A DNA stretch of 41,090 nt from a virus (IMGVR_UViG_2563366960_000010); one strand, 5' to 3'; counted from the stretch's first letter, positions 1,143-41,090 are shown. Notes: generated by a model not told the origin, from the letters alone. Numbers and translations: made by a program.

Positions 1143-1289
1143 CATTCATAGTGCAGGGTTCAAATCATTCCCACTCAATTATTTACGATAACCATAACCA
1201 ATTGAGTGATAACATTTTTCCAAATCTCAATTTTTCCCGTACCGTTTTATATACCGTCACCGGAAATCAGTACCATGAAAAATGCCATG

Positions 1290-1772
1290 CTATCTGGTCA
1301 AAGTGTCGTACTGTTTTTCGCAGACTCTTCCGGCTTCGGCTGCCCGGTCAGCATACTCTGCCAGTTGTCTGTTTCTCTCGAGAGATTTGCTGAGCACGTC
1401 GGCAAGCAAAACTCCGGTGTCTGCGGCTGACGACCCAGCGCCGACAATGGCGTTATACTGCCTGAGCTGCTCACGGATGGCAAAGAGTTGTTGCTGCAAC
1501 CGGCCAGCGCTAGCGGCAGCATCAAGAGCATCATTGCGCGCCTGGTCGATCCTCTGCTGAGCTTCACGTTCATTGGTCACTTTCTCCTGTTCGTAGTACT
1601 GACGAACTTTGTCTTCTTCGGCTTTGCGGTCTTCTTCCGCCTGAGCATACCCGGCATCGTACTGGCGACTGCCGTGTATATTCCAGGCAACCACTCCTGA
1701 TATGACCAGAACAGCAAGCACTGCCACGATAAGAAACTGTTTCCAGTATGCTTTTACGAATGCCCAGATCAT
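1290..1772 (-). CDS. Rz: i-spanin Rz
   Basis: 160 aa, N-terminal TM helix then charged coiled-coil; start overlaps endolysin stop by 4 nt; last gene of lysis cassette. Confidence 0.75.
1298..1534 (-). CDS. Rz1: o-spanin Rz1 lipoprotein embedded in the +1 frame of Rz
   Basis: Embedded ORF with signal peptide [13 protein letters not shown] (lipobox LAGC) and Pro/Ser-rich mature part; exact start (1534 or 1531) uncertain. Confidence 0.6.
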   Translation of the reverse strand: MMLLMLPLALAGCSNNSLPSVSSSGSITPLSALGRQPQTPEFCLPTCSANLSRETDNWQSMLTGQPKPEESAKNSTTL

Positions 1773-2398
1773 ACCGCCAGCACCTTACTGGCAGTGATGT
1801 ACCGCGCTCGCCGGTCGTCGATGCCGTTCCGGCCACCATTGATAATCAGAGTTACACGTGCAATATCGCCGGTATACTTCATGCATCCTTTGCTGGCGAA
1901 GAACCACGCCGCGCTACGAGCCGCATATTCGTCCTGCGCCAGCAGTTCAGGGCTCTCCAGCAGGTCAACCTTCAGACCGTTTCCGCAATCACGATAGTTA
2001 TTCAAACCGGTAATCTGGATAAGTCCGCGCCCTCGGTAATTCCAGCCATCACCAGGGGCATTGTTCCCCATGCGTTTGCTGTATACCATATTTGCGATCG
2101 CGCGCTGGCGCTCAAGTGGCAATGGTGGTTCACCAGCACGGCGCCCCAGTGCATTAGCCTGCCCCTGAGTGAGACGCCCAGCCCGAACGAAGTTAGCCAG
2201 TCCGCTGACACTGTAGTTGAAATTCTCCTGCAACCTGGTGAAGCCCCCAGACTCATGCCCGACTTGAGCAATAAACATTGCCTGATCTTCTGCTTTGCTG
2301 ATACCAAACTCTTTCATCGCAGAAGTTATATGCGAGAACCAGCGTGCGGCCAGTGCCTCGCTGATACCAGCAGCTCGCTGGAATTGTTTAATCTCCAT
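1769..2398 (-). CDS. Endolysin, glycoside hydrolase family 19 (chitinase class I-like)
   Basis: Starts at MEIKQF (ATG 2398) inside a longer ORF; motif [12 protein letters not shown] and [12 protein letters not shown] typical of GH19 phage endolysins. Confidence 0.85.
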
Positions 2399-2696
2399 GT
2401 TTAGACCTCGATACTTTAAAAATTTGAACGACGTTACCGCGCGTTTTAATAACCGCAGCCAGCATGACAGCGTTGATAATGACCTCAGATAAATCCACAG
2501 CCATTGGCGTACGTAACCAGATTGCATAGGCGACTCGAACAGGAATACTGGCCGCAGCAACAATCAGGAAATAAGCAAGCCATCCTCCCCACCTTCGATG
2601 TTGAGAGCCGTTACGCCGGAATGTGACAACGCGAATTGCTATGCCAGTGCAAATAACTGCATTGGTGATAAGCAAAAAAAACTCATGCGTTACCAT
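2388..2696 (-). CDS. Small two-TM membrane protein in lysis cassette (holin/antiholin-like)
   Basis: 102 aa, two hydrophobic helices, SD GGGGAGAAAAG upstream, overlaps holin end and endolysin start. Confidence 0.5.
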
Positions 2697-3087
2697 CGTC
2701 TTTTCTCCCCGGAATTAACTCGCGTGGATTATCGGAACGGTGATAGAGCCATATACCAATACGCACAGCGACAATTGCTGACACGAATGCGCCTGCAGAG
2801 AAAACAATCCCTTTTTCAAAAGAGTCCTGCGTGATGGTAGGGATCAGGCTGGCTATGCCGATAAGAATTGATGCTGCTGGTTTGTAAAAGAGAAGGCCGC
2901 AAAGAAAGCTGAGCATCGACAGGAGCACCCGGCGACGGATGGGGTACTCTACTGCAGAGGTAACAAAAATTACCGCCCCAGCCAAAGCCCCTAAAGCAAC
3001 CTCCGGAGGGGCACCTGCAATAACCGCAGCAAGAGAACTAAAACTAAGCAACTGATTTAATTGCTCACTTGTTACTTGAGCAGACAT
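2683..3087 (-). CDS. Holin
   Basis: 134 aa with multiple TM segments and charged C-terminus, strong SD AGGAGA, first gene of lysis cassette. Confidence 0.65.
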   Translation of the reverse strand: MSAQVTSEQLNQLLSFSSLAAVIAGAPPEVALGALAGAVIFVTSAVEYPIRRRVLLSMLSFLCGLLFYKPAASILIGIASLIPTITQDSFEKGIVFSAGAFVSAIVAVRIGIWLYHRSDNPRELIPGRKDDGNA

Positions 3088-3368: not shown

Positions 3369-3395
3369 CCCGCAAAATATTGCGGGCTTTTTTTT
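3369..3395 (+). terminator. Plus-strand intrinsic terminator abutting the tailspike stop codon
   Basis: Stem CCCGCA / TGCGGG with 6-nt loop followed by T8 on the plus strand; on the minus strand the hairpin is not followed by a U-run. Confidence 0.5.
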
Positions 3396-6300
3396 AACGT
3401 TCTTCCAGAGACTGAATCCGCTCTTTTATCTTATCCATTTCTCTGCGCTGCCATGCTGCCTCGATATAGAATAAGAGATCAGGTCTGACCCCCCATCTAG
3501 ATCCTGCTGGCGTTATTTCAACGCGCTCAATGATGTCTTCCATTACCATCACTGGATTATCATCCTCATCAACAATGATGCTCCCGTCATTATCAGTCAG
3601 CGGCATTTCCCTTTGGCCAGTAATGACGTCATCATATACTGCGGGATAATCGTCATAGCAAAGAAAGGCATAGCGGCATGTTGTGCTTTCTTCTTCCATG
3701 AGTCCGTGAGAAATAAGAACATCACGAAGTTGCTGCGCGATTACACCATGATGTATCCTCGCCCCTTCTTCCCCCTTTATAGCGACAGCGTTCAGCCATT
3801 TATAAGCGATATACCTGACGTCACCCCAGGCATCCAGCAATGCTTCGTCAGGAGAGACCGGCTCTGTCTTTAATGTTCCGTCACTGGTAACCACAGGATT
3901 GGAGCCAAGATAAACTGTCGAGAACCTGTTTCCCGGACCACCAAGAGCATTTACATTATCAAGATAAGGTTTAACATCTCCGTTCTCAAAAAGATGTTCG
4001 AGTGCGTTATATACCGCGCGACGTGGAGTACTGCTTCCGGAACCATGCAACGTTATCATTGCACCATCTGCTGAAGACGTTGTTTCACCGCCGCTAACGA
4101 TTAATCTCTGAGCGGTAACATCATCAGACGGTACTTTCTTCGCAATAATGGCGTAATTACCCTCAAGTTTGACTTCCGCGCGAACTTGTCCTGATGTACC
4201 TGCATGGACAGTCAGTGACTGGACGGCAACATCATCTGTGAAATCAACGGGTACAGGAACCGTCCTCACGCCTGACGTCGACATAAAAGTAGGAAGCGTT
4301 CTGTTAGGAGTGGCTCCGTAGACAAAATCCCTTGAAACAAATTCTTCCTGTTTAATTTTCACCCTGAAACAATACAAATCAGCCGGGTGACCATCGTGAA
4401 CATAAGGATATTTTCTGTTGTTATCCCCTATGCTCCATGGGTTTAGAAAGTCTTCCCCACCGAAAATGTAGTACAGCCAGTTGTCTTTGATACAAACTGA
4501 ACCAACACCAACTGCAGAGTTAACTATTCCGCCCTGATAAATCTGATCAGTAACATTAACCCACTCTACATTATCCAGACTCCACTCATTGACGTTAACT
4601 CTGGTCATAAATGTTCTTGGATAATTTCCTGCATAACGGTTATCAGGTTCTCCTCCTTCCCACTCACCAAATGCGCGCTCACTGCCAAAAATAATCAGCT
4701 CATCGCCAACTTTGGCAAAAGGAAGGTTTGAGTGATGAACATTATTTGGGAAGCGAAGAGAATTCCATGATGTACCTAAATCAGAGCTTCTGTGCAATGA
4801 ACTACCGGGTTGAGTACTTAATGTCCCCCTGGTCGTCAGATACAGAATGCCATCATAATATTTTACACATGGCTCAGATGCATTCGCCTCATATTCTGCA
4901 GGTATGCGTCTGCGAACAAAGCTACCAGGAGAACCGAAAGCATCAGAGAAATAGAGTATCCCAAGCTCGCGTGGACCAATATCACCATTATGGTAGCCAA
5001 CAGCAAAACTGTTATCGCTAATCGTCGCAAAACTGTGAATCTCAGTAACAGGAGTGCTTCCGTCAACAAAAGAAGGAATAGTTCCAAGACTGGTTTTTCT
5101 CCATGGTGACGAGTGAAATGATGTACCAAAACTCCAGTATCTACCCTCGTTATTCTGATCCACATCCTGGGTATTTTGCGTCGTAACTGTAAAAGTATTT
5201 TTATCAATAACAGTAGTCACCGTCATATTCCCGGTAACACCTGTAACACCAGAGTTTGAGAAGTTGACAAAATCACCAGCAAATAATCCGTGATCAGTAA
5301 TGCGAATATAAGCGACTTGCTGATTTGCTGCTTTCGTTATACCACCATAAGCGCGAAGGCTGCGACTCATTGGGCGATCCCACAACTCTGCAACCTGCAG
5401 TTTATTTCCGCTCACGGTCCGCGTCTCAATTACAGCAAAAAGGCGATTTCTGACAACCCCCATACTCATGCAGTGATAGTTAACTGTGGGATAGTTTTCA
5501 TGTAAATCTGTAAGCCATTCCGGCGTTGTCCAGGTCTTCCCGTCATCTCCTGAGCGAACCCATGCAACATGGAGGTTATTTACACCATGGCGGTCTCCAG
5601 CCATAAAAGGCGCATAGATGACATTGTCATATACAAACGTTTTATCCTGCGTCCAGGCGTTGTACCACGGTGTATCTGTAATTTTAAATAACTCTCCCTG
5701 GATAAAATCTTCAGAAGCATAAAAAAGAGGCTGGCCCGGTATTCTCTCAAATAAAAAACGAGCATTTTTAAATCGACTGACATCCGGAAGAGTTGATACT
5801 TTAAAAGTAAGCCCTAATCCGTCAATTTTATAACCTGGAGATGAGGCTTCAAGGCACGCGCTTATTGCAGTGGAATCGTCATTTATACCATCACCAACAG
5901 CTCCAAAATCTTTGGGGCTAATAGCATCACGCATTTTATCCTGGAACGTTCGGTACACAGCCCCAGAACCATACTGAATAAACCAACCAAAACCACCAAC
6001 AACCCCGGCGATTGCAGCATCGACATAATTACGCATTGAGCGATTATTTACAGCGTCCTGCTCAAATGATGGATCTGCAAGGTTAGAAATTTTGTTTTGC
6101 TTTGCATCGTAATATTTTGCAAGCAAAGATGGTTTCATCAATGCACGTCTGAACCACCCAAAACATTGCTGGATCAGCATCGTCAGGTAGTCAAAGGCAT
6201 CTTCATGCACTTCGGGGAAAAATTTTCCCTGATTGCGAAGGTCTGTCTCCTGCACTACATCAAGCACACGATCTATCGTAATTCGCCATCCAGTAGCAAG

Positions 6301-6513
6301 CGGAGACGGAAGAACCACAGAACCGCCACTATAAGTGCCCGCCCCAGTTACCGTATAACCGGTATCCAGAACCAATTCTGTTACGTTTCCGTTCAGGTCA
6401 GACACCTGAACAACCAGGTCTGATTTTCTGAAAATTCGAAAAGTATACGGAAACGATGTCGTAACGCCGTTACCGGTGTATTCGTTGTGGTCAACTTCGG
6501 TTGAGACCGTCAT
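3394..6513 (-). CDS. Tailspike: endosialidase with T7 gp17-like N-terminal adaptor and C-terminal intramolecular chaperone domain
   Basis: 1039 aa. N-terminus resembles T7 tail-fibre adaptor; sialidase-type FERIP motif; two Asp-boxes (SGDDGKTW, SSDLGTSW); C-terminus resembles the self-cleaving chaperone domain of K1F-type endosialidases. Confidence 0.8.
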   Translation of the reverse strand: MTVSTEVDHNEYTGNGVTTSFPYTFRIFRKSDLVVQVSDLNGNVTELVLDTGYTVTGAGTYSGGSVVLPSPLATGWRITIDRVLDVVQETDLRNQGKFFPEVHEDAFDYLTMLIQQCFGWFRRALMKPSLLAKYYDAKQNKISNLADPSFEQDAVNNRSMRNYVDAAIAGVVGGFGWFIQYGSGAVYRTFQDKMRDAISPKDFGAVGDGINDDSTAISACLEASSPGYKIDGLGLTFKVSTLPDVSRFKNARFLFERIPGQPLFYASEDFIQGELFKITDTPWYNAWTQDKTFVYDNVIYAPFMAGDRHGVNNLHVAWVRSGDDGKTWTTPEWLTDLHENYPTVNYHCMSMGVVRNRLFAVIETRTVSGNKLQVAELWDRPMSRSLRAYGGITKAANQQVAYIRITDHGLFAGDFVNFSNSGVTGVTGNMTVTTVIDKNTFTVTTQNTQDVDQNNEGRYWSFGTSFHSSPWRKTSLGTIPSFVDGSTPVTEIHSFATISDNSFAVGYHNGDIGPRELGILYFSDAFGSPGSFVRRRIPAEYEANASEPCVKYYDGILYLTTRGTLSTQPGSSLHRSSDLGTSWNSLRFPNNVHHSNLPFAKVGDELIIFGSERAFGEWEGGEPDNRYAGNYPRTFMTRVNVNEWSLDNVEWVNVTDQIYQGGIVNSAVGVGSVCIKDNWLYYIFGGEDFLNPWSIGDNNRKYPYVHDGHPADLYCFRVKIKQEEFVSRDFVYGATPNRTLPTFMSTSGVRTVPVPVDFTDDVAVQSLTVHAGTSGQVRAEVKLEGNYAIIAKKVPSDDVTAQRLIVSGGETTSSADGAMITLHGSGSSTPRRAVYNALEHLFENGDVKPYLDNVNALGGPGNRFSTVYLGSNPVVTSDGTLKTEPVSPDEALLDAWGDVRYIAYKWLNAVAIKGEEGARIHHGVIAQQLRDVLISHGLMEEESTTCRYAFLCYDDYPAVYDDVITGQREMPLTDNDGSIIVDEDDNPVMVMEDIIERVEITPAGSRWGVRPDLLFYIEAAWQRREMDKIKERIQSLEER

Positions 6514-6689: not shown

Positions 6690-6708
6690 ATTGCATGGAG
6701 AAGATAAG

Positions 6709-6966
6709 ATGCAGCAGTATCACTATCCACTGGAAGACGGATTTACCGAAAGGATTCACACGCCGGGAGGCGTCAGGTCACTGGTGGAGGGATCGCACTT
6801 GATGAAATTACTCCGGGATCTCGATAAGGATGGATTTAATGTCGATGGCCCACTTGCCGAACTGACTGCACTGATTAACTACGTCACCAGCTCACAGATG
6901 TCTATGCAGGATCTGCAAACACATCTCGACTATTGTGCCGAACAATTACGAAAACAAACCCGGTAA
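6709..6966 (+). CDS. Small protein homologous to the C-terminal domain of the antirepressor at 8115-8825; candidate SOS-controlled antirepressor or modulator
   Basis: 85 aa from ATG 6709 with SD GGAG. By eye about 40% identical to the last ~80 aa of the Ant ORF (shared IH.P.GV, LM.LL, DG..V.G..AEL, QTH). Confidence 0.6.
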   Translation: MQQYHYPLEDGFTERIHTPGGVRSLVEGSHLMKLLRDLDKDGFNVDGPLAELTALINYVTSSQMSMQDLQTHLDYCAEQLRKQTR

Positions 6967-6988
6967 ATTTAAAGGCCGCAAGAGCGGC

Positions 6989-7717
6989 CTATCGTTTCGC
7001 TTTGTGCTCGTCCCAGCACGTTTTGCACCATGCCATTAAGCCGTCCGCATTTTGATTATTAGGGTAAAAGCTGGTCCGTTTTCTGCGGACATTACAAATT
7101 GGGCACCACTTCATATGGCGTGTATTCTTTGGGCCATCGAGACACCTTGCACACCACTTAGTCAATCCATCTGGATTTTTTGACGATTTCCGGAATTTGT
7201 CATATGGAAGGTTTATTCTGCATCGCAAACACTGCTTGCGGCCACTTGAAACTCTGTTAGCTGATTCTTCTTTTGGCGGCGATACAGAAGGTATTCTTGC
7301 TGGCTCTGATACTGCCTGAGGTGCTTTTTTAGATGACTGAGACGATATGTCATCACCAGGGAATCTTCCATGATATGCCGGACGCATTGATACTCCAGGT
7401 GGAAGCTCAGCTGTAAACGGCTTTGGCTGAATCAGTTGCCTCTCTTTTGCTAACTCCTGCTGTTTACAATATGTCTGGATTACCGCACTATCATAAGCAG
7501 GAGGTGCGGAAATATTAGGCGCATTACCTCCAGTTTTTTGAAACTGAGTAGAGGTGTGTTCTATCACCTGTGTACGATTAATCGTTATCTCCCCATCTTC
7601 GGTCTTTATCGTTTTGTTATGATTAACGACCGTACGATCAGAGATCTTAGTCTTGTTCTGGTTGATAACGTAAATAATCACCGCAACCACACCAACAACT
7701 ATCCAGAAAACTTCCAT
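6989..7717 (-). CDS. Membrane-anchored protein with tandem CxxC zinc-ribbon repeats; candidate superinfection-exclusion factor
   Basis: 242 aa; N-terminal TM helix, Pro/Ser-rich linker, C-terminal twofold repeat C-x2-C ... DGL..WC-x2-C; SD GAGGA upstream; operator palindrome just upstream. Confidence 0.55.
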   Translation of the reverse strand: MEVFWIVVGVVAVIIYVINQNKTKISDRTVVNHNKTIKTEDGEITINRTQVIEHTSTQFQKTGGNAPNISAPPAYDSAVIQTYCKQQELAKERQLIQPKPFTAELPPGVSMRPAYHGRFPGDDISSQSSKKAPQAVSEPARIPSVSPPKEESANRVSSGRKQCLRCRINLPYDKFRKSSKNPDGLTKWCARCLDGPKNTRHMKWCPICNVRRKRTSFYPNNQNADGLMAWCKTCWDEHKAKR

Positions 7718-7737
7718 TGCTTTTCCTCACAATAACA

Positions 7738-7752
7738 TTACCTTAAAGGTAA
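7738..7752. promoter_or_regulatory. Operator-like palindrome TTACCTTAAAGGTAA
   Basis: Perfect 15-bp inverted repeat 21 nt upstream of the minus-strand start at 7717. Confidence 0.55.
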
Positions 7753-7830
7753 TATCTTGCTTTCAGGTGATCAAGCGTTAAACGCCACCAACCAAATACG
7801 GTTGATTTTGATATTTCTCCGCGTTTATCA

Positions 7831-7845: not shown

Positions 7846-7935
7846 ATTTACATCGCACTCCTCTTGTGCCATAGTAATCGGGCACTGGCAAAATCCAGTG
7901 CCGGGATTGGCGTCCCGGGTTACTAAGTGGCGCAT

Positions 7936-8825: not shown

Positions 8826-8833
8826 CGGGCGGT

Positions 8834-33646: not shown

Positions 33647-34448
33647 CCCACACCCCTTCTATCCAGTCAGTGTTATTCCAGTCAAGCTCATCGCTTTTCC
33701 CGGCATTTTTTGATTTTCCCCTGATATGATTTACGTGCCTGGCGAATTTTTGTTCCCACTGAACCTGCGTGAACACTTTGCCCTCAGCCATCCAGTAATC
33801 CCGGAATGCAGCAAGTTCAGCAGGTGTAAATTCCGGTTCCGGCAGGGCCGTTCCCCACAGCGCAGCACGCCGCCGAAAATCTGGCGACGGTAGCCAGCCA
33901 TCTGTCATCGGAAATTTCCCGATGGGTTCACTCAGGCCATCCAGAAATTCAGGTTCTGCCACCTGCAACGGCGTACTGTTCGCTTCACTGGTCGGAGCAC
34001 CCTCGCGCACGTGCGCTATGTGTGGGGTTTTATATATATCTTCCTCTTCCTCTTCCTCTGGTAACTCCTTTTGTAACGCTGTTGGCGTTACTTTTTGCGT
34101 TACTCGTTTTCTATGCTCTGCCACTCTTCTATTCGTAAGTGCACGTTTTTTCGATGATTCTCCATTATGTCGCTCAAAGTTTGGAAGAATTAGTTTGCCG
34201 TCATGATAAGCAAGCCATCCGACGCTAATGAGGGCGTCAGCAAATCCTGTAATAAAAGCGAGTCTATCAAGTACTCCTTTTGTAACGCTGCCAGCGTTAC
34301 CGTCTATTGTTTGCTGGTCAGCCCATGCCCATATACGAACCAGCTTTCCAAGAACAGCATCTGGATCAATACCCAGAATTTCTGCTATCTGAAAAATTTC
34401 AGGTTTATCAGGAGTGATAACTTCAACCTTAATCCAGCTGCTTGCCAT
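33618..34448 (-). CDS. Replication initiation protein, DUF1376/YdaU-like with DnaT-like C-terminal domain
   Basis: About 276 aa from ATG 34448 with SD GAGGGG; acidic EEEEEED linker; C-terminal segment resembles DnaT-type domains; upstream of P-like gene. Confidence 0.55.
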   Translation of the reverse strand: MASSWIKVEVITPDKPEIFQIAEILGIDPDAVLGKLVRIWAWADQQTIDGNAGSVTKGVLDRLAFITGFADALISVGWLAYHDGKLILPNFERHNGESSKKRALTNRRVAEHRKRVTQKVTPTALQKELPEEEEEEDIYKTPHIAHVREGAPTSEANSTPLQVAEPEFLDGLSEPIGKFPMTDGWLPSPDFRRRAALWGTALPEPEFTPAELAAFRDYWMAEGKVFTQVQWEQKFARHVNHIRGKSKNAGKSDELDWNNTDWIEGVWDEINSRTSQ

Positions 34449-34641
34449 AGGTTTCCCCTCTTGCACTCTTTAGTGCACAAGCAAATTCATTACGATGGCG
34501 GTTGGCGCTATTCATTGCACATTCAACACATGTTCCGTTCAGAACATACCTTTCAGAGAGATGGCCGTGACGGCACCGCTTTCCTGTGAAATAGCGATTT
34601 AACCCGGCTTTTGCGGCCTCCATTCTGGTTACTATCTTCAA
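34429..34641 (-). CDS. Small zinc-finger protein (possible regulator)
   Basis: 70 aa, TTG start with SD AAGGGG; motif C-x-H ... C-x2-C. Confidence 0.4.
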   Translation of the reverse strand: MKIVTRMEAAKAGLNRYFTGKRCRHGHLSERYVLNGTCVECAMNSANRHRNEFACALKSARGETYGKQLD

Positions 34642-34740
34642 TTTTTCCGCCCCTTTTTGTTATTGATATTGGCTATTTTGCACAATTGGAAAATTTGATC
34701 AACCAGATTTGGTTTTTTATTACCCTTAAGGTGCGAATAG

Positions 34741-34767
34741 ATATGAAAAGACCGCCGGATGGCGGTC
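34741..34767 (-). terminator. Terminator-like hairpin downstream of the cro-like gene
   Basis: Minus-strand hairpin GACCGCC / GGCGGTC followed by UUUUCAUAU; short U-run, possibly antitermination-dependent. Confidence 0.4.
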
Positions 34768-34789
34768 TACAGAGGGTTGTGGCTGGATA

Positions 34790-35020
34790 TCATGAGTAGA
34801 AGAAGTATGCCAGTTCTGCTTTTGAGCGCAGCCATTGTCTTGTTTTACAGGCTTTAAAAAGCCCATTCATCAATACTTTACCTGGCATTTTGCGCTTGCC
34901 TGTTAAGTGAGTCTGGATATAGTGACTCGTCGTTCCGGCTTCCTGTGCGAAGGCTTCACGCTCATCCGGAGTAAGTGCAAGCCAGTGCTTTTTGAAATCG
35001 AAATGTCCGTTATCGCTCAT
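34790..35020 (-). CDS. Cro-like HTH DNA-binding protein
   Basis: 76 aa, HTH-like segment, divergent from repressor gene across an operator-containing region; first gene of the replication operon. Confidence 0.55.
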   Translation of the reverse strand: MSDNGHFDFKKHWLALTPDEREAFAQEAGTTSHYIQTHLTGKRKMPGKVLMNGLFKACKTRQWLRSKAELAYFFYS

Positions 35021-35174: not shown

Positions 35175-35759
35175 ATGAAAAGTATCCAGGACGTCCGCAG
35201 GCAAAATCTCAACGACTTGATCGACCGTGAATTCAATGGTGTTCAGACGCGGATGGCAGAAAAACTTGGAACTCAGGCAAATCTGGTAAACCGCTGGGCT
35301 CTTGGCAAGAAGGTTATCGGCGACCAGGTTGCACGAAAAATTGAAGCTGCCGCCAATAAACCCCGTAACTGGCTTGATATTGATCGTTCGCTTTCTCAGG
35401 AGGGTTTTCAGCCTGTCGGCCCGAGCGATATAGGTCAGCTGGCGGCTCACAACCTGGAACGCTGGATGAGCGAAAGCCGCGACCTTTCAACACAGGGAAA
35501 ACTTCACCGCGCATCCGGCGTCGCCCAGGTGACAATCAGCCGCCTGTTAAACAATGAGGTCAGCGTTTCCATTTCCACCCTGGAGAATGTTGCATCCGCA
35601 TTCGGGCGTCACGGATATGAACTACTGATTCACCCGCACGACCCTGCGACTATCAACTATGACCGCTCACGCTACGCATTGTTACCCGAAACCGAGAAAG
35701 CAAAGATCGAAAGTTACATTGAATTTGTCATCAACCAGAACGAAAAAAGCAAACAATAA
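35175..35759 (+). CDS. Prophage repressor candidate with tandem XRE-type HTH domains and no S24 peptidase domain
   Basis: 194 aa; two HTH-like segments; no Ser-Lys autocleavage domain recognisable; divergent from the cro-like gene. Confidence 0.6.
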   Translation: MKSIQDVRRQNLNDLIDREFNGVQTRMAEKLGTQANLVNRWALGKKVIGDQVARKIEAAANKPRNWLDIDRSLSQEGFQPVGPSDIGQLAAHNLERWMSESRDLSTQGKLHRASGVAQVTISRLLNNEVSVSISTLENVASAFGRHGYELLIHPHDPATINYDRSRYALLPETEKAKIESYIEFVINQNEKSKQ

Positions 35760-35780
35760 AACTATAGTTTTCAGTAAGTA

Positions 35781-35805
35781 AGCCGCCTCATGGCGGCTTT
35801 TTTAT
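35781..35805 (+). terminator. Intrinsic terminator after the repressor gene
   Basis: Stem AGCCGCC / GGCGGCT followed by TTTTTTATT. Confidence 0.65.
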
Positions 35806-35816
35806 TGCCAGATAGA

Positions 35817-35831
35817 TTACCTTACGGGTAA
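35817..35831. promoter_or_regulatory. Operator-like palindrome TTACCTTACGGGTAA (one mismatch) at the early-left promoter
   Basis: Lies just upstream of TTGACA (35851-35856); GGTAAC half-site repeats at 35888-35907 follow. Confidence 0.5.
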
Positions 35832-35912
35832 TTTTTTTAACTCATATCTATTGACACCAAACCAAATAAGCATAATTATTACCCCAACGGTAACAGACCG
35901 AGGTAACAAGTT

Positions 35913-36065
35913 ATGCAGTGGAAAATCATCAACGGTTGGTACTGCGTTACTGCATGCGGATTCATGAGCTGGAAGTTCCGCACCTTACAGGAAGGCATTA
36001 AGTGGGCTTTCGTCAGCAAAGAAGCTCGCGATGTAGCCAACGATAACGAGATATGGGAGGGCTGA
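35913..36065 (+). CDS. Small Trp/Cys-containing protein (50 aa), first gene of the early-left operon
   Basis: ATG with SD GAGGTAA; below ORF-track cutoff; function unknown. Confidence 0.4.
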   Translation: MQWKIINGWYCVTACGFMSWKFRTLQEGIKWAFVSKEARDVANDNEIWEG

Positions 36066-36067
36066 TA

Positions 36068-36367
36068 ATGAACGTTAATCAGCAGAAAAATCTTCAAAAA
36101 ATCATGCTGGCATTCGACAAGGACTACCGCCTGTCAGAACAGCTATATGACCGACAAGTTGAACTGATTGAGAGCATCCGACTTCATCAACTGTCCTCAA
36201 CTTTCGACGTTGTAACAGGCAAAGGCGTTCGTCAGGAAGTGCTGGAGGCTGCTAAAGACAGCCCTGAGTTCGAAGAACTGATGGATGCCTACCGGCGCGA
36301 GGCAATGGCAATTATAGCGCGCTGGGATCTGGCGGATCAGCTTGATGGGCAGAGGGACGCGGCATGA
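36068..36367 (+). CDS. Hypothetical early protein (99 aa) preceding the recombination genes
   Basis: ATG 36068 with SD GGGAGGG; stop overlaps the exonuclease start (ATGA). Confidence 0.45.
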   Translation: MNVNQQKNLQKIMLAFDKDYRLSEQLYDRQVELIESIRLHQLSSTFDVVTGKGVRQEVLEAAKDSPEFEELMDAYRREAMAIIARWDLADQLDGQRDAA

Positions 36368-37263
36368 TGCGGAACGCTGGAATCATGGATAGAACAAAAT
36401 ACATCGGAGGAAGCGATGTTGCAGGGATTCTTGGAATTAGCCCATGGCGCACCCCGCTTGAGGTTTATCTGGATAAGGTCCAGCCACGTGTCAAACCAGT
36501 AGACCCAAGCAAGCAGAAAGTTTTCACGCGTGGCCAGCGTATGGAGCCATACGTAATAGACCTGCTTTCTGAGGAAACAGGGATGGAAATCGTTCATCGC
36601 GGAAACCGCTATATCCACCGTGATTACGATTTTATTGCAGCTGAGATCGATGCAGAAGCAGCGTCAGGCGAGAACATTGAGATCAAAACAGTTAGTCCGT
36701 TCAAAGCCAAAGAATGGGGAGAAATCCAGACAGATGCAATTCCTGTGCATTACACGGCCCAGGCCATGCACGGGTTGATGGTTACAAACAAACAGGTATG
36801 CGTTTTCGGTGTGCTTATCGGTGGCGACGACTTCCGAATCTATCGGGTTGAGCGTGATGAAGAAACTATCCAGGCGATCTTAGAAAAAGAAATCGCTTTC
36901 TGGGACCGAGTGAAAAATCTTAACCCGCCGGAAGCTACCAGCGTAAGCGATGTATCGCTGATGTTTGAGAAAGATGCCGGGACAAGTATCGAGGCTGACG
37001 GAAAGGCACTCGCACTATTCAACGATCTACGAGACATGAAATCACGCAGAAAATCACTGGAAGAAGAAATAGCTATATCAGAAGAGAAGCTGAAGATGTA
37101 CATGCAAGAGCACTCAGTCCTGACCCTGGACGGAAAGCCGCTCTGCACATGGAAATCTCAGATCAGCAACAGATTCGACCAGAAGCTATTCCAGTCAGTA
37201 CACCCTGAGTTATTCGAAAAATTCAAAACAACAACGACACAACGCGTCTTCAGAATGAAGTAA
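36364..37263 (+). CDS. YqaJ-like viral recombinase exonuclease (lambda Exo-type)
   Basis: 299 aa; N-terminal DRTKYIGGSDVAGILGISPWRTPLEVYLDK matches the YqaJ pattern; directly upstream of recT. Confidence 0.8.
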   Translation: MMRNAGIMDRTKYIGGSDVAGILGISPWRTPLEVYLDKVQPRVKPVDPSKQKVFTRGQRMEPYVIDLLSEETGMEIVHRGNRYIHRDYDFIAAEIDAEAASGENIEIKTVSPFKAKEWGEIQTDAIPVHYTAQAMHGLMVTNKQVCVFGVLIGGDDFRIYRVERDEETIQAILEKEIAFWDRVKNLNPPEATSVSDVSLMFEKDAGTSIEADGKALALFNDLRDMKSRRKSLEEEIAISEEKLKMYMQEHSVLTLDGKPLCTWKSQISNRFDQKLFQSVHPELFEKFKTTTTQRVFRMK

Positions 37264-37272
37264 GGAGAAAAA

Positions 37273-38295
37273 ATGTCTATCAATGCACTTAAGGCAGCGG
37301 CTACCGGTAACCAAGTTGCACATCATAATGAGAAACCAACAACTCTGGCCGGACTTCTGGCAGACCCAAAAATTAAAGCTCAGATGGCTTTGGCACTTCC
37401 AAAGCACATGACAGCAGACCGTCTGGCGCGCATAGCAACCACAGAGATCAGAAAGGTTCCAAAACTTGCATCATGCGACCAAGCCAGCTTCCTGGGGGCA
37501 ATTATGCAATGTGCCCAATTGGGTCTTGAACCAGGCGGAGCTCTTGGACACGCTTACCTGATACCGTTCGACAAACGCCAGAAAGTAAATGGAAGATGGG
37601 AAACCGTATCTACAGAAGCACAGCTGATTATCGGCTATCGCGGAATGATTGACCTTGCCCGCCGCTCTGGGCAGATCCTGAGTATCTCGGCTCGTACCGT
37701 ACATACAAACGACAAATTCAGCTACTCATACGGCCTGGAAGAAACGCTCGAGCATTTACCTTGCGAAACAGGTGACCGCGGAGAATTAACGCACGTTTAC
37801 GCCGTTGCACGACTGAAAGATGGCGGAGTCCAATTTGAAGTTATGAGCCGGGCAGACGTTGAGAAAGTTCGTGCACTGAGCAAAGCCGGTAGCAGTGGCC
37901 CATGGGTTGATCACTTCGATGAGATGGCTAAAAAAACAGTAATTCGCCGACTGTTCAAATATCTTCCTGTTTCTATTGAAATGCAGAAGGCTGTTGTTAT
38001 GGATGAGCGCGCTGAAGCTGGACTTAGCCAAGATAACGCAGCTGTTATCACTGGTGAATATTCCGTAGTTGACGATGAGCGTCAACACCTGTCGCCAATT
38101 TCAGATTCAGAACGAGAAGAAGCTCGAGAATATATCATCGCGATACTTAATAGCCTGGATCCATCTGCTGAAGATGCAAAAACGATGTTCAAGCGCGCTG
38201 AAAATGAAATTAACACCATGGCTGAAAAGCTCGGTGATGAATATCACCAAAAATTCATGATGACGCTTAACGATATGCGTCCAGAATTCGAGTAA
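37273..38295 (+). CDS. recT: RecT-family single-strand annealing protein
   Basis: 340 aa with extended identity to Rac RecT as recalled (LGLEPG.ALGHAYL.PF, LIIGYRGMIDLARRSGQI, THVYAVARLKDGG.QFEVM, GPWV.H..EMAKKT.IRRLFKYLPVSIE). Confidence 0.9.
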   Translation: MSINALKAAATGNQVAHHNEKPTTLAGLLADPKIKAQMALALPKHMTADRLARIATTEIRKVPKLASCDQASFLGAIMQCAQLGLEPGGALGHAYLIPFDKRQKVNGRWETVSTEAQLIIGYRGMIDLARRSGQILSISARTVHTNDKFSYSYGLEETLEHLPCETGDRGELTHVYAVARLKDGGVQFEVMSRADVEKVRALSKAGSSGPWVDHFDEMAKKTVIRRLFKYLPVSIEMQKAVVMDERAEAGLSQDNAAVITGEYSVVDDERQHLSPISDSEREEAREYIIAILNSLDPSAEDAKTMFKRAENEINTMAEKLGDEYHQKFMMTLNDMRPEFE

Positions 38296-38344
38296 CCACC
38301 ACCGCGGCGCCACGTGCGCCGCACTGCAACCAAGAGAGGTATTC

Positions 38345-38593
38345 ATGAAAGGTGCATTAGGTAAGAAAGAACTCCTGGCGGTGGTGCCACTGTCATGGAG
38401 CACTATCGACCGTATGGAGCGCGCAGGGGAATTTCCTAAACGCTGGTATATCACCGATAAACGCTGCGCATGGAACCGTGATGAAGTTGAGCGTTGGCTT
38501 GATGAACGTCAGGCAGCAAGCCCGGCAGAGTTCCAGGGTAAAAAGCCTCCTGTTCAGCAACGTGTATATCGTCCCGTGAGCAACGCTGCATGA
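38345..38593 (+). CDS. AlpA-family phage transcriptional regulator / excisionase-like
   Basis: 82 aa with the AlpA-type pattern (LSWSTIDRMERAGEFPKRWYITDKRCAWNRDEVERWL). Confidence 0.65.
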   Translation: MKGALGKKELLAVVPLSWSTIDRMERAGEFPKRWYITDKRCAWNRDEVERWLDERQAASPAEFQGKKPPVQQRVYRPVSNAA

Positions 38594-38702
38594 GTGCGCT
38601 GCTAAGGCACTGGAGCAAATGGTCAGGATGGTACTTATTCCTGGCCTCTGTTTCAGCATGGCTTTATCTGCTGGCATTAATTTTCAGAGAGGGTTGGATT
38701 AA

Positions 38703-39002
38703 GTGAGAAAGTTAAGCCGACTTGAAAAATATCACATGAATAAGGTTTCAATGCGCAGTCCGTCAAAGATTGTCGCCGTTACTCCTGCGGCGATAGAGAT
38801 CGAAAAACGCGCGATTGAAAGAGAGAAAAAAGGGCAATTCCGCATTGCCGCTCACCTTTGGCTTCAGTGTATGGATGTTGCTTCTGGTGATGTTGAACGT
38901 GCAAGGATCGCGGTTCGCAGGGACCAATGTATCACAAAAGGTAACGGCCTTCGCCGTGGCGACTATAGCGGCATAGGATGTTGTGGGGTGGTTTATGACT
39001 AA
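38703..39002 (+). CDS. PerC/ANR-like small regulator (tentative)
   Basis: 99 aa, GTG start; central AAHLWLQC...RIAVRRDQC resembles the PerC pattern as recalled. Confidence 0.4.
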   Translation: MRKLSRLEKYHMNKVSMRSPSKIVAVTPAAIEIEKRAIEREKKGQFRIAAHLWLQCMDVASGDVERARIAVRRDQCITKGNGLRRGDYSGIGCCGVVYD

Positions 39003-39645
39003 GAAATACACACTAATCTATGCAGATCCACCCTGGGTATACCGGGACAAAGCCGCAGATGGTAATCGCGGTGCCGGTTTTAAATATCCGGTTATGAGTG
39101 TGCTGGATATCTGCCGCCTTCCTGTGTGGGATTTGGCCGATGAAAACTGTCTGTTGGCCATGTGGTGGGTGCCAACACAACCACTCGAAGCACTAAAAGT
39201 TGTTGAAGCCTGGGGATTCCGTCTGATGACGATGAAGGGCTTCACGTGGATAAAATGTGGTAGTCGACAACCAGATAAACTGGTTATGGGTATGGGACAC
39301 ATGACTCGCGCCAATAGTGAAGATTGCCTGTTTGCGGTAAAGGGAAAACTACCTACGCGCATTAATGCAGGGATCGTTCAGTCATTTACCGCACCGCGGC
39401 TTGAGCATTCAAGAAAGCCAGATATCGTTCGTGAAAAACTTGTGCAATTATTAGGCGATATTTCTCGCATTGAACTGTTCGCCCGCCAGACGTCTCATGG
39501 CTTTGATGTTTGGGGTAATCAGTGCGAAGACCCGGCAGTGCAACTACACCCTGGATACGCGTTGGATATTGGCGGATTAACAAATGCATTCAGCAATGCT
39601 CCGCTGTCACCAACAGACATCCAGGGGCGGGAGCGTGCTGCATGA
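38995..39645 (+). CDS. Orphan DNA N6-adenine methyltransferase, MT-A70 family
   Basis: About 216 aa from ATG 38995; catalytic DPPW in LIYADPPWVY; no adjacent restriction gene. Confidence 0.8.
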   Translation: MTKKYTLIYADPPWVYRDKAADGNRGAGFKYPVMSVLDICRLPVWDLADENCLLAMWWVPTQPLEALKVVEAWGFRLMTMKGFTWIKCGSRQPDKLVMGMGHMTRANSEDCLFAVKGKLPTRINAGIVQSFTAPRLEHSRKPDIVREKLVQLLGDISRIELFARQTSHGFDVWGNQCEDPAVQLHPGYALDIGGLTNAFSNAPLSPTDIQGRERAA

Positions 39646-39836
39646 ACAGGGCATCACCAGCAGATTTAAGAAAATGCCTTGAAACTGCAAACATGCTTGC
39701 ACACAGCGGGATCAGGTTTGTTCCAATTCCCGCTGTCACTGATGCTGAATTTGCAACACTGTCAGCAATATTCGAAAACAAAATTGAATCACTGGCAGCA
39801 GAAGCAGAGATGGAAGAAAATCAGCAGAACTATTAA
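39642..39836 (+). CDS. Small hypothetical protein adjacent to integrase
   Basis: 64 aa from an ATG overlapping the methyltransferase stop (ATGA); the track ORF's upstream extension overlaps the methyltransferase and is unlikely. Confidence 0.4.
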   Translation: MNRASPADLRKCLETANMLAHSGIRFVPIPAVTDAEFATLSAIFENKIESLAAEAEMEENQQNY

Positions 39837-39839
39837 ACG

Positions 39840-41090
39840 TTATTCCCCCGCCATCCACTTCTCAAACTTCGACGGGGAGAACGGAATCAGATCCGTATGC
39901 TCCCCGTCAATCCATGAATCAATCATATCGGCCCACTGCTGCAACATGTAGGCGCGCTGTCTGGCGTATTCCGCTTTGTTATATACGGCGCGCACACCTT
40001 TCTGCTCATGTGCCAGAGCCTTTTCAATCCAGTCTGAAGGATAACCAGCCTCATGCAACAACGTACTGGCTGTACGGCGCATATCATGTACAGTGAAGTC
40101 CTGAATATGCTCACCATCTTCATTTATTATTTTCACCGTTCTGTCGATCAGAGAGTTCAGCGCGGCATTAGATAATGGCTTCCGGAAATTGTAACGACCA
40201 GGAACCAGATATTCACTTCCACCAGCGCACATCTGCAACCCGACCAATATATCCTGTGCCTGTTTAGGCAGGTAAATAACGTGCGCCCGGCTTCCCTTCA
40301 TGCGGTCTGGAGGAATTGTCCATGTCCATTTTTTAAAATCTATTTCATCCCACGTTGCATTGGTGAATTCGCCCTTACGAACCATAGTGATAAGCACCAG
40401 TTTTAAAGCCATTTTCATAGTGCCCATAGCACCAATGGCATCCAGCGTGCGGAAGAACAGGCCAATTTCTTCTGGTGCCAGTGTTCGCTCTCGTGGTTTA
40501 AATATGGCGATAGACGAAGGTTTAATGTCAGCCGCAGGATTAAACAAACCATGACCACGGTCATTGGCGTGACGGTATACGCTACTGATGATCTCCCTGG
40601 CCTGCACTGCTGTTGCCCGGCCACCGCGTTCGACAATCCGGTCACACAAATCACGAACCATCGATGTGGTAATTTCAGCCATCATTTTATTGCCAAGAAC
40701 CGGAAGTATGTCACGGTCGATCACCGCCTGTTTCATTGCGCGGGTACTGTCAGCCAGGATGACGTGTTTCATATAACTGTCGGTATGTACCGCAAACGTC
40801 TCGGCACCACGAATCTTTTTGATACCGTCACGTTTAGCCGCAGCCGGTGACTGGCCTGCTTTAAGCAGCTTCTTTGCAGCAATCAGTTCTTCTCGCGCTT
40901 CTGCCAGGCTGATACCGTCACGCCCATACTGCCCGATTACCAGTGTTTCGCGGCGACCGTTGATACGGTAGTCATAGCGAAACGAGACCGTGCCTGACGT
41001 AAGCACAGCTACATACAGCCCGTCACGATCGGAGACCTTGTACAGTTTGTCCTGCGGCTTGAGGTTTTTTAATTTTGTATCGGTAAGCAC
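39840..41090 (-). CDS. int: Tyrosine integrase, P4-type; 5' end probably truncated by the window edge
   Basis: 416 aa in window; arm-binding N-terminus LTDTKLKNLKP..LY.V.DRDGLYV and C-terminal catalytic region HDMRRTASTLLHEAGY; first in-window codon is GTG at the last base, so the true start is likely beyond 41090. Confidence 0.85.
   Translation of the reverse strand: MLTDTKLKNLKPQDKLYKVSDRDGLYVAVLTSGTVSFRYDYRINGRRETLVIGQYGRDGISLAEAREELIAAKKLLKAGQSPAAAKRDGIKKIRGAETFAVHTDSYMKHVILADSTRAMKQAVIDRDILPVLGNKMMAEITTSMVRDLCDRIVERGGRATAVQAREIISSVYRHANDRGHGLFNPAADIKPSSIAIFKPRERTLAPEEIGLFFRTLDAIGAMGTMKMALKLVLITMVRKGEFTNATWDEIDFKKWTWTIPPDRMKGSRAHVIYLPKQAQDILVGLQMCAGGSEYLVPGRYNFRKPLSNAALNSLIDRTVKIINEDGEHIQDFTVHDMRRTASTLLHEAGYPSDWIEKALAHEQKGVRAVYNKAEYARQRAYMLQQWADMIDSWIDGEHTDLIPFSPSKFEKWMAGE

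Follow-up and report, generated by a model that had tools for sequence, protein, structure and literature searches.

The window, by which we mean the whole stretch of 41,090 nucleotides analyzed here (virus IMGVR_UViG_2563366960_000010), opens with a host flank outside the prophage that carries yfgH and yfgI (1..1071, plus strand), matched by megablast in 5422 of 5426 E. coli genomes and annotated as yfgH/yfgI in strain A33. The left boundary of the prophage is an att core (1163..1179, minus strand; ATTGAGTGGGAATGATT) that is an exact match to the core of attP and attB described for vB_EcoP_ZX5 (3' end of guaA). Phage homology starts at 1163, and the start at 1144 given in a preliminary description of the sequence is corrected accordingly. 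At the opposite end lies the gene for a P4-family tyrosine integrase (39840..41090, minus strand; PF13356, PF22022, PF00589), which in strain A33 adjoins guaA, the other flank of the prophage besides yfgI. The second att copy is located beyond the right end of the window, and we infer completeness at this end from related genomes. The junction between yfgI and the prophage recurs in 459 of the 5426 complete E. coli genomes.

The lysis cassette (1290-3087, minus strand) is located downstream of the tailspike gene and encodes an Rz-type spanin (DUF2514; 1290..1772; PF10721, E 2e-43) with an embedded Rz1 lipoprotein (1298-1573; lipobox LALAGC), which are 86-88% identical to their epsilon15 counterparts; an endolysin of the glycoside hydrolase family 19 type (1769..2398; PF00182, E 6e-9; 84% identical to the epsilon15 endolysin); and two holin-family membrane proteins of 102 and 134 aa (2388-2696, PF05449, E 5e-27, and 2683-3087, PF16931, E 5e-11), orthologs of the epsilon15 holin and gp23. 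The position of holin, endolysin and Rz/Rz1 after the tailspike was noted previously and stands, but its description as T7-like is only partly apt: in T7, only the holin and spanins come after gene 17, interleaved with terminase genes, and the endolysin (gp3.5) is located 24 kb upstream.

The tailspike (3394..6513, minus strand; endosialidase Pfam domains) is chimeric. Residues 1-165 represent an epsilon15/phiV10-type particle-binding domain (71.5% identical to residues 1-161 of epsilon15 gp20), and residues 193-1037 a K1 endosialidase, including a chaperone domain at its C-terminus (95.6% identical to residues 134-978 of CUS-3 SiaK1). In a fold search, the N-terminus matched Carin-1 8ck1_B and the N-terminus of T7 gp17 (7ey9/7boz), so that the predicted fold agrees with the T7 gp17-like N-terminus proposed earlier; P22 gp9 was not among the 50 matches listed. 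This gene, which combines an epsilon15-type N-terminus with a CUS-3-like K1 endosialidase, is the recent mosaic piece of the element. Such a fusion has already been described for ZX5, and the chimeric junction occurs in 72 complete genomes, including those of APEC O1, APEC O18 and O1:K1:H7 strains. Between the tailspike and the internal protein genes, a variable accessory-gene island that differs among relatives (6691..9990) contains a gp19-like ORF and small ORFs (PHROG matches), a 242-aa ORF with no assigned function (6989-7717, minus strand), and a Bro-N antirepressor (8100-8825, plus strand; PF02498, E 1e-19).

The large internal virion proteins noticed in the preliminary description are three products of 824, 600 and 837 aa encoded at 10000-16792 (minus strand). 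The 824-aa protein (10000..12474; phrog_684), an ortholog of epsilon15 gp17 (28% identical; 99% to ZX5), corresponds to T7 gp16 according to Hardies et al. (2016, PMC4819975); hhalign gave a nonsignificant E value of 0.09 against T7 gp16. The 600-aa protein (12480..14282; phrog_1145) is an ortholog of epsilon15 gp16 (30% identical) for which hhalign revealed no connection to either T7 or P22, and homology of these two proteins to T7 gp15/gp16 was not confirmed by this method. The 837-aa protein (14279..16792) contains a muralytic, lysozyme/transglycosylase-like domain (residues 249-406) recognized by PDB and hhalign searches (9vvp_L, E 9e-39; endolysin 7q47_A); it is 53% identical to K1F gp16 residues 3-154 and aligns with T7/K1F gp16 at E 1e-16 (hhalign).

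Next to these genes, on the same strand, are those for a 179-aa protein (16805..17344) and a 154-aa protein (17344..17808). The former begins with MC and finishes with TGR, exactly like T7 gp14, as had been pointed out, and passes the threshold of the PF24072 T7_gp14 family (32.8 bits; cutoff 27). Against T7/K1F gp14, hhalign yielded E 7.5e-5 over 15 C-terminal columns in local mode, and a run with global behavior gave E 9e-7 across 163 columns. The latter is a gp13-like internal virion protein that matches phrog_308 (E 1e-62), as does T7 gp13 (E 1e-42); its hhalign match has E 6e-4 over 139 columns, and its match to PF11090 only E 0.088. Whether the ejection proteins are closer to those of T7 or P22 is debated, because in published trees (Swanson et al., PMC8954989) the gp14- and gp16-like proteins of epsilon15 group closer to P22 than to T7.

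The two tail genes at 17808-20887 (minus strand) were recognized initially by their adaptor and nozzle sizes (202 and 823 aa, versus 196 and 794 aa for T7 gp11 and gp12), and this reading is borne out. The 823-aa product (17808..20279) is a tail nozzle of the T7 gp12 class, with a match to the Carin-1 'Tail Nozzle' (PDB 8ck1_A) at E 2.5e-216. A profile of 61 nozzle sequences aligns with T7 gp12 residues 350-466 at E 9e-6 (probability 83%), compared to E 0.19 for the profile alignment with P22 gp10; 485 relatives of this gene were found among IMG/VR viral contigs. The AlphaFold model (pLDDT 84.7) of the 202-aa portal-tail adaptor (20279..20887) has the T7 gp11 fold: Foldseek matches include Carin-1 8ck1_E (TM 0.82), LME-1, KP32 tail tubular protein A, and T7 gp11 (7box_M; TM 0.58, E 3e-6), and P22 gp4 was not among the 50 matches listed. 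The portal protein (24085-25764, minus strand) belongs to the T7 gp8 family (PF12236 Head-tail_con, E 6e-187) and is connected to T7 gp8 by reciprocal PHROG matches (332/449). Its C-terminus (...QARQQRAQQQQQQQMMAMGMAAAQGAK...; Gln accounts for 27% of the last 60 residues) is Gln-rich like that of T7 gp8 (...EEQKQQKMAQQSMQMGM...), in agreement with the preliminary description, and its PDB matches include 8ck0_A (E 8e-178) and the portal of a T7-like cyanophage (8i4m_S, E 2e-5).

The capsid shell block (20884..23085, minus strand; PF20911, PF21190, PF21628) consists of the genes for the major capsid protein (22093-23085), a Bbp16-type cement protein (21604-22041), a 114-aa protein (21258-21602), and a gp10-type staple protein (20884-21213). 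The best solved relative of the capsid protein, which is of the epsilon15 gp7/BPP-1 type, is BPP-1 (3j4u_A, 432 bits), which outscores epsilon15 (3j40_A, 290 bits), and neither pairwise nor PHROG comparisons linked it to T7 gp10 or P22 gp5. The capsid protein and its two decoration proteins are of the epsilon15/BPP-1 type and not T7-like. A scaffold/protease-like 233-aa protein and a 98-aa protein (23094..24088, minus strand) are orthologs of epsilon15 gp6 (phrog_458 'protease') and gp5 (74% and 66% identical, respectively). The large (27113-28588, minus strand; 95% identical to epsilon15 gp2) and small (28585-29259, minus strand; PF03592) terminase subunits are encoded ahead of the portal gene, which is not the T7 arrangement. 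The large subunit falls in phrog_2 (181 bits), which is also matched by P22 gp2 (157 bits), whereas the best family of T7 gp19 is phrog_38. A tRNA-Arg gene (anticodon UCU; 26413..26489, plus strand) predicted by ARAGORN is also annotated in O157 typing phages and in strain A33.

The early-right region (29300..35020, minus strand) encodes an epsilon15 gp49-like regulator (phrog_536, transcriptional regulator), DUF551, Ead/Ea22 and DUF1064 proteins, a small ORF in the cro position, a lambda P-type replication protein (32870-33646) and a DnaT-like initiator (33618-34466), as identified by Pfam matches and colinearity with phiV10. The early-left region (35175..39836, plus strand), colinear with phiV10, ZX5 and epsilon15, begins with an HTH repressor (35175-35759) and further encodes a YqaJ exonuclease, RecT, AlpA, PerC, an MT-A70 methylase and an ORF in the DUF1382 position (Pfam). 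These early genes and the integrase bear out the lambdoid/P4-type regulation, replication, recombination and integration recognized in the preliminary description, and the lack of a phage RNA polymerase gene stands as well: all ten ORFs of at least 300 aa in the window were accounted for.

At the nucleotide level, the structural region is 97-98% identical over 91-94% of its length to HEMP4, phiv142-3, ZX5 and phiV10, and ~76% identical to epsilon15. The lysis/tailspike and early regions are also covered by ZX5, at 98-99% identity, but coverage is only 68% for window positions 1-10000 (which include 1162 host bases) and for 30000-41090. A comparison of 23 virion, packaging and lysis proteins found 21 that are 97-100% identical to those of ZX5; the exceptions are the 179-aa gp14-like protein (64%, and likewise only 64% to the phiV10 allele) and the 837-aa internal protein (90%). 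A synteny comparison, as suggested in the preliminary description, showed that the gene order is colinear, gene by gene, with phiV10, ZX5 and epsilon15, including the lysis genes past the tailspike. We conclude with high confidence that positions 1163-41090 represent an apparently intact prophage of a temperate podophage of the genus Uetakevirus (epsilon15/phiV10 lineage), essentially vB_EcoP_ZX5, with a P4-type integrase and integrated at the 3' end of guaA. ZX5 itself is a temperate Uetakevirus with a K1 host, guaA integration and spontaneous induction (Pathogens 2022, PMC9782041). Because of the divergence of the gp14-like and 837-aa proteins and the partial coverage of the accessory island and the early region, the prophage is a close variant of ZX5 but not the same isolate. 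The element is an ordinary, well-known kind of E. coli prophage.

The preliminary description portrayed a mosaic temperate phage with a T7-like virion module and lambdoid regulation, which can be read as a noteworthy and potentially novel combination with a lambdoid temperate backbone. The genes for tail and ejection proteins are indeed of the T7 type and follow the order of T7 genes 8 to 17, the early genes are lambdoid/P4-type, and the RNA polymerase gene is absent. However, the junction is neither recent nor unusual, being part of a conserved genus architecture shared with epsilon15, phiV10 and ZX5 at ~76-98% nucleotide identity, and the element recurs in hundreds of E. coli genomes, with relatives of its nozzle gene in IMG/VR contigs. 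Pairwise searches barely detect the remote similarity to T7, and any joining event is therefore ancient. Furthermore, the claim of a T7-like particle holds for the portal, tail and ejection parts but not for the capsid shell or the large terminase: the capsid shell, terminase and endolysin are of non-T7 ancestry. Finally, the deep homology of the tail and internal virion proteins of the epsilon15 group to those of T7 is already in print (Hardies et al. 2016, PMC4819975). The novelty of the mosaic is contradicted by this publication and by the identity and colinearity of the relatives, which makes this reading improbable.

Still less probable, and largely refuted by family, profile and fold comparisons, is a P22/Sf6-like virion, such that the T7 likeness of this temperate enterobacterial podophage with tailspikes would reflect only general short-tailed features. 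The shared phrog_2 membership of the large terminase, Sf6 gp2 as the best HHpred match listed in the epsilon15 RefSeq note, the near-identity of the tailspike catalytic part to that of the P22-like phage CUS-3, and the trees of Swanson et al. all speak for it, and according to Hardies et al. all of these groups ultimately share a common ancestry. Yet the portal belongs to PF12236, not PF16510; the gp14-like protein to PF24072, not PF25688, with P22 gp7 in another family; and the gp13-like protein to phrog_308, not phrog_651 or DUF2824. The nozzle profile favors T7 gp12 over P22 gp10, the adaptor and spike-anchor models match T7-type chains, with neither P22 gp4 nor gp9 among the 50 listed for each, and no annotated gene matches the P22 needle gp26, which was included among the compared references. 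Because T7 counterparts were matched and the P22 counterparts fall in other families, the closer affinity to P22/Sf6 that would have overturned the T7 assignment was not observed for the tail/ejection module. Thus, the portal, adaptor, nozzle, gp13-like, gp14-like and muralytic internal proteins and the tailspike anchor are supported as T7-type, not P22-type.

From established knowledge of epsilon15, T7 and K1 phages, the Uetakevirus prophage would produce a T=7 head of gp7-type coat protein strengthened by the cement and staple proteins, carrying a gp8-type portal dodecamer, an adaptor ring of the gp11 type and a gp12-type nozzle hexamer. The endosialidase spikes, six trimers, would dock at the adaptor-nozzle junction via the gp17-like N-terminal domain and degrade the K1 polysialic-acid capsule. 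Subsequently, an internal core would be ejected, cutting peptidoglycan and forming a trans-envelope DNA channel; it would comprise the gp14-like and muralytic 837-aa proteins together with those of 600 and 824 aa. Host RNA polymerase would perform all transcription, under a repressor/antirepressor circuit, and cells would probably be lysed by the holin-endolysin-spanin cassette that ends the tailspike transcription unit.

Compared to known systems, the prophage most closely resembles ZX5 (MW722083.1), with equal gene order, att core and guaA site and a tail fiber of the same 1039 aa (99.8% identical); the accessory island (6.7-10 kb) and the early-right region differ in part. With the Uetakevirus type members phiV10 (NC_007804; structural region 97% identical) and epsilon15 (NC_004775; ~76%), it shares a common order of terminase, portal, capsid, adaptor, nozzle, internal protein, accessory island, tailspike, lysis, att-int and early genes. 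In these phages, however, the receptor-binding part of the tailspike is O157- or O-antigen-specific, not a K1 endosialidase, and O-antigen modification genes occupy the position between the tailspike and lysis genes, where the window has an empty gap of 306 bp. The capsid shell block of epsilon15 is only 36-43% identical to that of the window, and the counterparts of the 600- and 824-aa proteins only 28-30%. CUS-3 SiaK1 and K1F gp17 share the beta-propeller, beta-barrel, stalk and chaperone domains of the tailspike (95.6% and 62% identical, respectively), whereas the particle-binding modules at the N-termini differ: that of the window is epsilon15-type, that of CUS-3 P22 gp9-type and that of K1F T7-type. 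No neuO-like gene is found downstream of the tailspike in the window.

T7 and other Autographiviridae share the portal family, the gp11-fold adaptor, the gp12-class nozzle, the gp13- and gp14-family proteins, the gp17-type anchor and a muralytic domain borne on an internal protein, with these virion genes in equal order and the holin downstream of the fiber gene. In contrast to T7, the window contains no phage RNA polymerase or T7 replication genes, and the lifestyle is temperate; the capsid protein is of another family and is accompanied by cement and staple proteins; the large terminase, encoded upstream of the portal, is P22-like; a GH19 endolysin in a contiguous lysis cassette takes the place of the gp3.5 amidase; and three large proteins, not gp15 and gp16, share the ejection functions. 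For the capsid protein, portal, adaptor, nozzle and fiber anchor, the nearest structurally solved relatives come from Cobetia marina phage Carin-1 (PDB 8CJZ/8CK0/8CK1) and from Legionella phage LME-1 (PDB 9EFK), which infect other hosts; in Foldseek alignments, the adaptor and fiber anchor are 32% and 47% identical to those of Carin-1, and 20% and 17% identical to those of LME-1. Both have been described as having T7-like virions (PMC12407071), and their structures argue against non-T7 adaptor and nozzle folds in the epsilon15 group.

The prophage that begins at position 1163 belongs to a phage type already known, of which a nearly identical isolate has been published. In megablast searches of the phage collection, positions 10000-30000 were 97-98% identical over 91-94% of the length to HEMP4, phiv142-3, the temperate Escherichia phage vB_EcoP_ZX5 (ZX5) and phiV10, and the structural half was about 76% identical to the Salmonella phage epsilon15; the early region and the lysis/tailspike end matched the same phages as the structural half. 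All five phages are placed in the genus Uetakevirus, and the Uetakevirus gene order, from the terminase to the integrase and early genes, is kept gene by gene, as seen from the annotations of phiV10, ZX5 and epsilon15. Of 23 proteins for virion, packaging and lysis that were compared with ZX5, 21 match along their entire length with 97-100% identity; a gp14-like protein of 179 aa (64%) and a large internal protein of 837 aa (90%) differ more. In pairwise comparison with reference phages, the epsilon15 orthologue was the best match for 22 of 23 proteins, and K1F gp17 was the best match for the tailspike. That the prophage is a defective remnant was rejected, all 23 proteins compared aligning at approximately full length with those of viable ZX5.

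The first 1162 bp of the window are E. coli chromosome (yfgH, yfgI), followed by prophage to the window end. Phage homology begins at 1163, to which the left boundary of 1144 in the preliminary description is corrected, the sole coordinate to change. The 17-bp att core, ATTGAGTGGGAATGATT, occupies 1163-1179 as a single copy in the window and is identical to the core of ZX5, which has been located at the 3' end of guaA (PMC9782041). E. coli strain A33 has the same prophage inserted between yfgI and guaA, the latter directly beyond the integrase gene; together with the presence of one att core in the window, this places the second att copy just outside, and the prophage is fully contained except for about 190 bp. 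The integrase Pfam domains, the att core and the A33 neighbor together show the Uetakevirus combination of a P4-type integrase and insertion at the 3' end of guaA. The yfgI-prophage junction was found in 459 of 5426 complete E. coli genomes, and IMG/VR viral contigs contain 485 relatives of the nozzle gene, the best 80 of which are all at least 99% identical.

The gene map was derived from ORFs, Pfam and PHROG scans, and the annotations of phiV10, ZX5 and epsilon15. In phage order, the minus strand encodes, from 29259 downwards, the small and large terminase subunits; the portal, a 98-aa protein and a scaffold/protease-like protein; the capsid shell block at 20884-23085 (capsid protein, Bbp16-type cement, 114-aa protein and gp10-type staple); a 202-aa adaptor and an 823-aa nozzle; internal proteins of 154 aa (gp13-like) and 179 aa (16805-17344); large internal proteins of 837 aa (14279-16792), 600 aa and 824 aa; and, beyond a variable accessory island with a Bro-N antirepressor, the 1039-aa tailspike and the lysis genes (two holin-family genes, GH19 endolysin, and Rz with embedded Rz1), which precede the att site. 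The terminase and portal genes flank a gene for tRNA-Arg (anticodon UCU; 26413-26489, plus strand) that runs in the opposite orientation and is likewise annotated in O157 typing phages and strain A33. The other arm encodes the P4-type integrase, DUF1382, MT-A70 methylase, PerC, AlpA, RecT, YqaJ-type exonuclease, HTH repressor, DnaT-like initiator, a lambda P homologue, DUF1064, Ead/Ea22-type genes and a late regulator. A 176-aa ORF in the early region (30534-31064, minus strand) matched the Mom protein family below threshold (22.2 bits vs a cutoff of 27.1). In the accessory island, a functionally unassigned 242-aa ORF (6989-7717, minus strand) falls in phrog_6762, and its last 40-50 residues weakly match Lar-like restriction-alleviation, endonuclease VII and HNH zinc-finger families. 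Strong terminator-like hairpins on the minus strand, after the last internal-protein gene (9813-9830) and after the 242-aa ORF (6973-6990), suggest that the head, tail and ejection genes and the tailspike-lysis genes are separate transcription units divided by the accessory island.

The preliminary description had read the prophage as a T7-like virion module joined to lambdoid regulation. When each virion component was tested against T7 and P22, most matches of the tail and ejection proteins went to T7. The reading is partly supported: it holds for the tail and ejection machinery, which, apart from the 600- and 824-aa proteins, is T7-type rather than P22-type, and fails for the capsid, large terminase and endolysin, which are not T7-like. 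Pairwise phmmer comparison of the window with T7, K1F and P22 yielded almost no matches beyond one domain, so that the T7 relationship, if real, must be ancient. The portal belongs to the T7 gp8 family PF12236 (E 6e-187) and has a Gln-rich C-terminal segment like that of gp8, the latter as anticipated; its PHROG assignment, phrog_332 (also 449), reciprocally cross-matches that of T7 gp8, phrog_449 (also 332), and its second PDB match is the portal of a T7-like cyanophage, the P22 portal being in PF16510/phrog_156. The 154-aa protein shares phrog_308 (E 1e-62) with T7 gp13 (E 1e-42) and aligns with gp13 over 139 columns in two-sequence hhalign (E 6e-4); P22 gp14 is in other families. The 179-aa protein starts with MC and ends with TGR exactly as T7 gp14 does, again in line with the preliminary description, and exceeds the curated threshold of PF24072 (T7_gp14), P22 gp7 being in PF25688; RefSeq names the protein in A33 "virion core protein, T7 gp14 family". 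A nozzle profile of 61 sequences, drawn from the best 150 of 18,173 representatives found in an exhaustive search, matched T7 gp12 residues 350-466 with E 9e-6 and probability 83%, vs E 0.19 for P22 gp10; this central region of gp12 is the one reported by Hardies et al. (PMC4819975).

For the adaptor, a shallow profile of 26 sequences (Neff 2.2) detected neither T7 gp11 nor P22 gp4 in hmmsearch or hhalign, and after this the question of its fold was settled by structure prediction and Foldseek. The AlphaFold model (pLDDT 84.7) matches the Cobetia marina phage Carin-1 (TM 0.82), the Legionella phage LME-1, T7 gp11 (TM 0.58, E 3e-6) and several T7-like phage gp11 proteins; the 50 matches listed do not include P22 gp4. 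The tailspike N-terminus has PF03906 as its sole Pfam match, below threshold (E 0.006). Its 24-sequence profile is colinear with T7 gp17 residues 1-160 over 127 columns (hhalign E 0.003; vs P22 gp9, E 0.27), and its structural model (pLDDT 71 overall and about 90 within residues 11-80) matches Carin-1, LME-1, PhiM1 and the T7 gp17 N-terminal chains 7ey9 and 7boz, all with Foldseek probability 1.0. Shared PHROGs were dropped as evidence of a T7-type N-terminus because the P22 gp9 N-terminus shares other tailspike PHROGs with the window protein; in phrog_1171, 8649 and 20129, for example, N-terminal positions are matched by both epsilon15/T7-type and P22 gp9-type anchors. Such mixing of N-terminal module types makes a shared PHROG unreliable evidence of homology for modular tailspikes.

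The portal, adaptor, nozzle, gp13, gp14 and fibre N-terminal domain of the Autographiviridae are all represented, and the T7-type genes follow the order of T7 genes 8 to 17. No window protein matched the P22 families PF16510, PF11650, PF11134, PF25688 and PF16928 or P22's own PHROGs, hhalign against the P22 counterparts gave E values of 0.19-0.27, and no Lederbergvirus-type portal, gp4, gp10, gp26 needle, gp7/gp20/gp16 or gp9-type head-binding domain was found.

Among the parts unlike T7, the capsid protein is a member of the epsilon15 gp7/BPP-1 family (PF20911, phrog_212), T7 gp10 being in phrog_267, and showed no link to either T7 gp10 or P22 gp5. Its best solved relative is Bordetella phage BPP-1 (3j4u_A, 432 bits) vs epsilon15 (3j40_A, 290 bits), and the shell block at 20884-23085 (minus strand) is 36-43% identical to epsilon15 compared with 81-88% for the flanking portal, adaptor and nozzle; both observations point to replacement of the shell module within the genus. 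The large terminase, encoded with the small subunit upstream of the portal gene, has as its named terminase family phrog_2, shared with P22 gp2, the best family for T7 gp19 being phrog_38. Of the remaining Autographiviridae traits, a T7-type capsid gp10, a large terminase gp19 and a phage RNA polymerase are lacking; the absence of the polymerase, already claimed from the first reading, is borne out by other assignments for all 10 ORFs of at least 300 aa.

Among the ejection proteins, residues 249-406 of the 837-aa protein form a muralytic domain, which has 53% identity to the K1F gp16 N-terminus (residues 3-154) and is the only part matching gp16 (hhalign E 1e-16). This domain was evidently exchanged between ejection proteins of the epsilon15 and K1F types. 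The alignment of T7 gp16 itself with K1F gp16 starts only at about residue 125. The 824-aa protein gave a non-significant two-sequence hhalign match to gp16 (E 0.09), with all homologues among the matches listed at least 88% identical, and the 600-aa protein had no hhalign match to gp15 or gp16; epsilon15 gp17 has been assigned as the gp16 counterpart (PMC4819975). For the gp14-like protein, the large terminase and the 824-aa protein, single-sequence PDB searches gave no informative match. The gp14-like protein is 64% identical to the ZX5/phiV10 alleles and 68% to that of epsilon15, the 837-aa protein is 90% identical, and the neighboring genes are 99% identical; these values mark 16805-17344 and 14279-16792 as a patch of locally divergent alleles among the ejection-protein genes.

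The tailspike is chimeric. Residues 1-165 are 71.5% identical to the epsilon15 gp20 N-terminus and 68% to the phiV10 tail-fibre N-terminus, and residues 193-1037 are 95.6% identical to SiaK1, the endosialidase of the P22-like K1 prophage CUS-3, and 62% to K1F gp17. By sequence comparison, the tailspike is the recent mosaic piece of the prophage. ZX5 shares this exact chimera (99.8% identical), as do 72 complete E. coli genomes, among them APEC O1, APEC O18 and O1:K1:H7 strains. The protein has the complete architecture of the K1-specific (GH58) phage endosialidase tailspikes (N-terminal extension, beta-propeller with inserted beta-barrel, stalk and C-terminal intramolecular chaperone), with PF12218, PF12217, PF12195, PF12219 and PF13884 all above threshold, and the ZX5 tail protein has been described as a T7-like N-terminal domain with endosialidase and chaperone (PMC9782041). 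Given the 95.6% identity to CUS-3 SiaK1, the activity of which is annotated as experimentally shown, the tailspike is predicted to cleave alpha-2,8-polysialic acid.

The epsilon15 particle, as seen by cryo-EM, is short-tailed, with six tailspikes and an internal core. Electron microscopy of ZX5 likewise showed a short tail, six tailspikes and an internal core (PMC9782041); the window prophage would be expected to form such a particle. The T7 relationship of the tail and ejection proteins is established knowledge, present in the literature since 2016: using profile-profile methods, Hardies et al. showed that tubular tail proteins A and B of T7 and its internal virion proteins A, B and D have homologues at syntenic positions in the epsilon15 group, with the nozzle profiles of epsilon15 and T7 as the only strongly matching pair and the epsilon15 terminase and capsid grouping with siphoviruses (PMC4819975). 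The epsilon15 RefSeq record gives HHpred matches of gp11 to T7 tail tubular protein A and of the terminase to Sf6 gp2. Carin-1 and LME-1, the closest solved relatives of the prophage portal, adaptor and nozzle, have virions called T7-like in the LME-1 paper (PMC12407071). Swanson et al. noted that the epsilon15 internal core is T7-like, and placed the gp14- and gp16-like proteins of epsilon15 nearer P22 in simple trees (PMC8954989); the family-level tests performed here favour a T7 affinity for gp13 and gp14.

Two wider readings concern the whole known lineage, and neither is specific to the window. We consider both unlikely: the first is that the epsilon15 lineage keeps the ancestral state of the T7-type tail and ejection machine, and the second that its three-protein ejection set forms a differently organised trans-envelope channel. 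If the former were true, a temperate phage dependent on host RNA polymerase would have come first and would have been the later source of the virion module of the lytic Autographiviridae; if the latter were true, the 837-, 600- and 824-aa set, with an exchangeable muralytic domain and divergent gp14 alleles, would be unlike the gp14-gp15-gp16 channel of T7.

The prophage has small discovery value, being of a type that is common in E. coli, K1 strains included, and has been characterised before. Its practical value lies in correct annotation, as a K1-capsule-specific Uetakevirus prophage at guaA. Its carriers are extraintestinal pathogenic strains such as APEC O1, which bears on K1 phage-host ecology and on endosialidase mining.

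The lysis cassette lies downstream of the tailspike, as the first reading had it. The two are separated by a 306-bp AT-rich gap without a gene (3088-3393), a position occupied in epsilon15, phiV10 and CUS-3 by surface-polysaccharide modification genes (O-antigen polymerase, oac, neuO); a hairpin followed by a T-run is present on the plus strand at 3369-3394. The lysis genes of the window are contiguous and include a GH19 endolysin, whereas in T7 the holin and spanin genes are interleaved with the terminase genes, and the amidase gene 3.5 lies far from gene 17.
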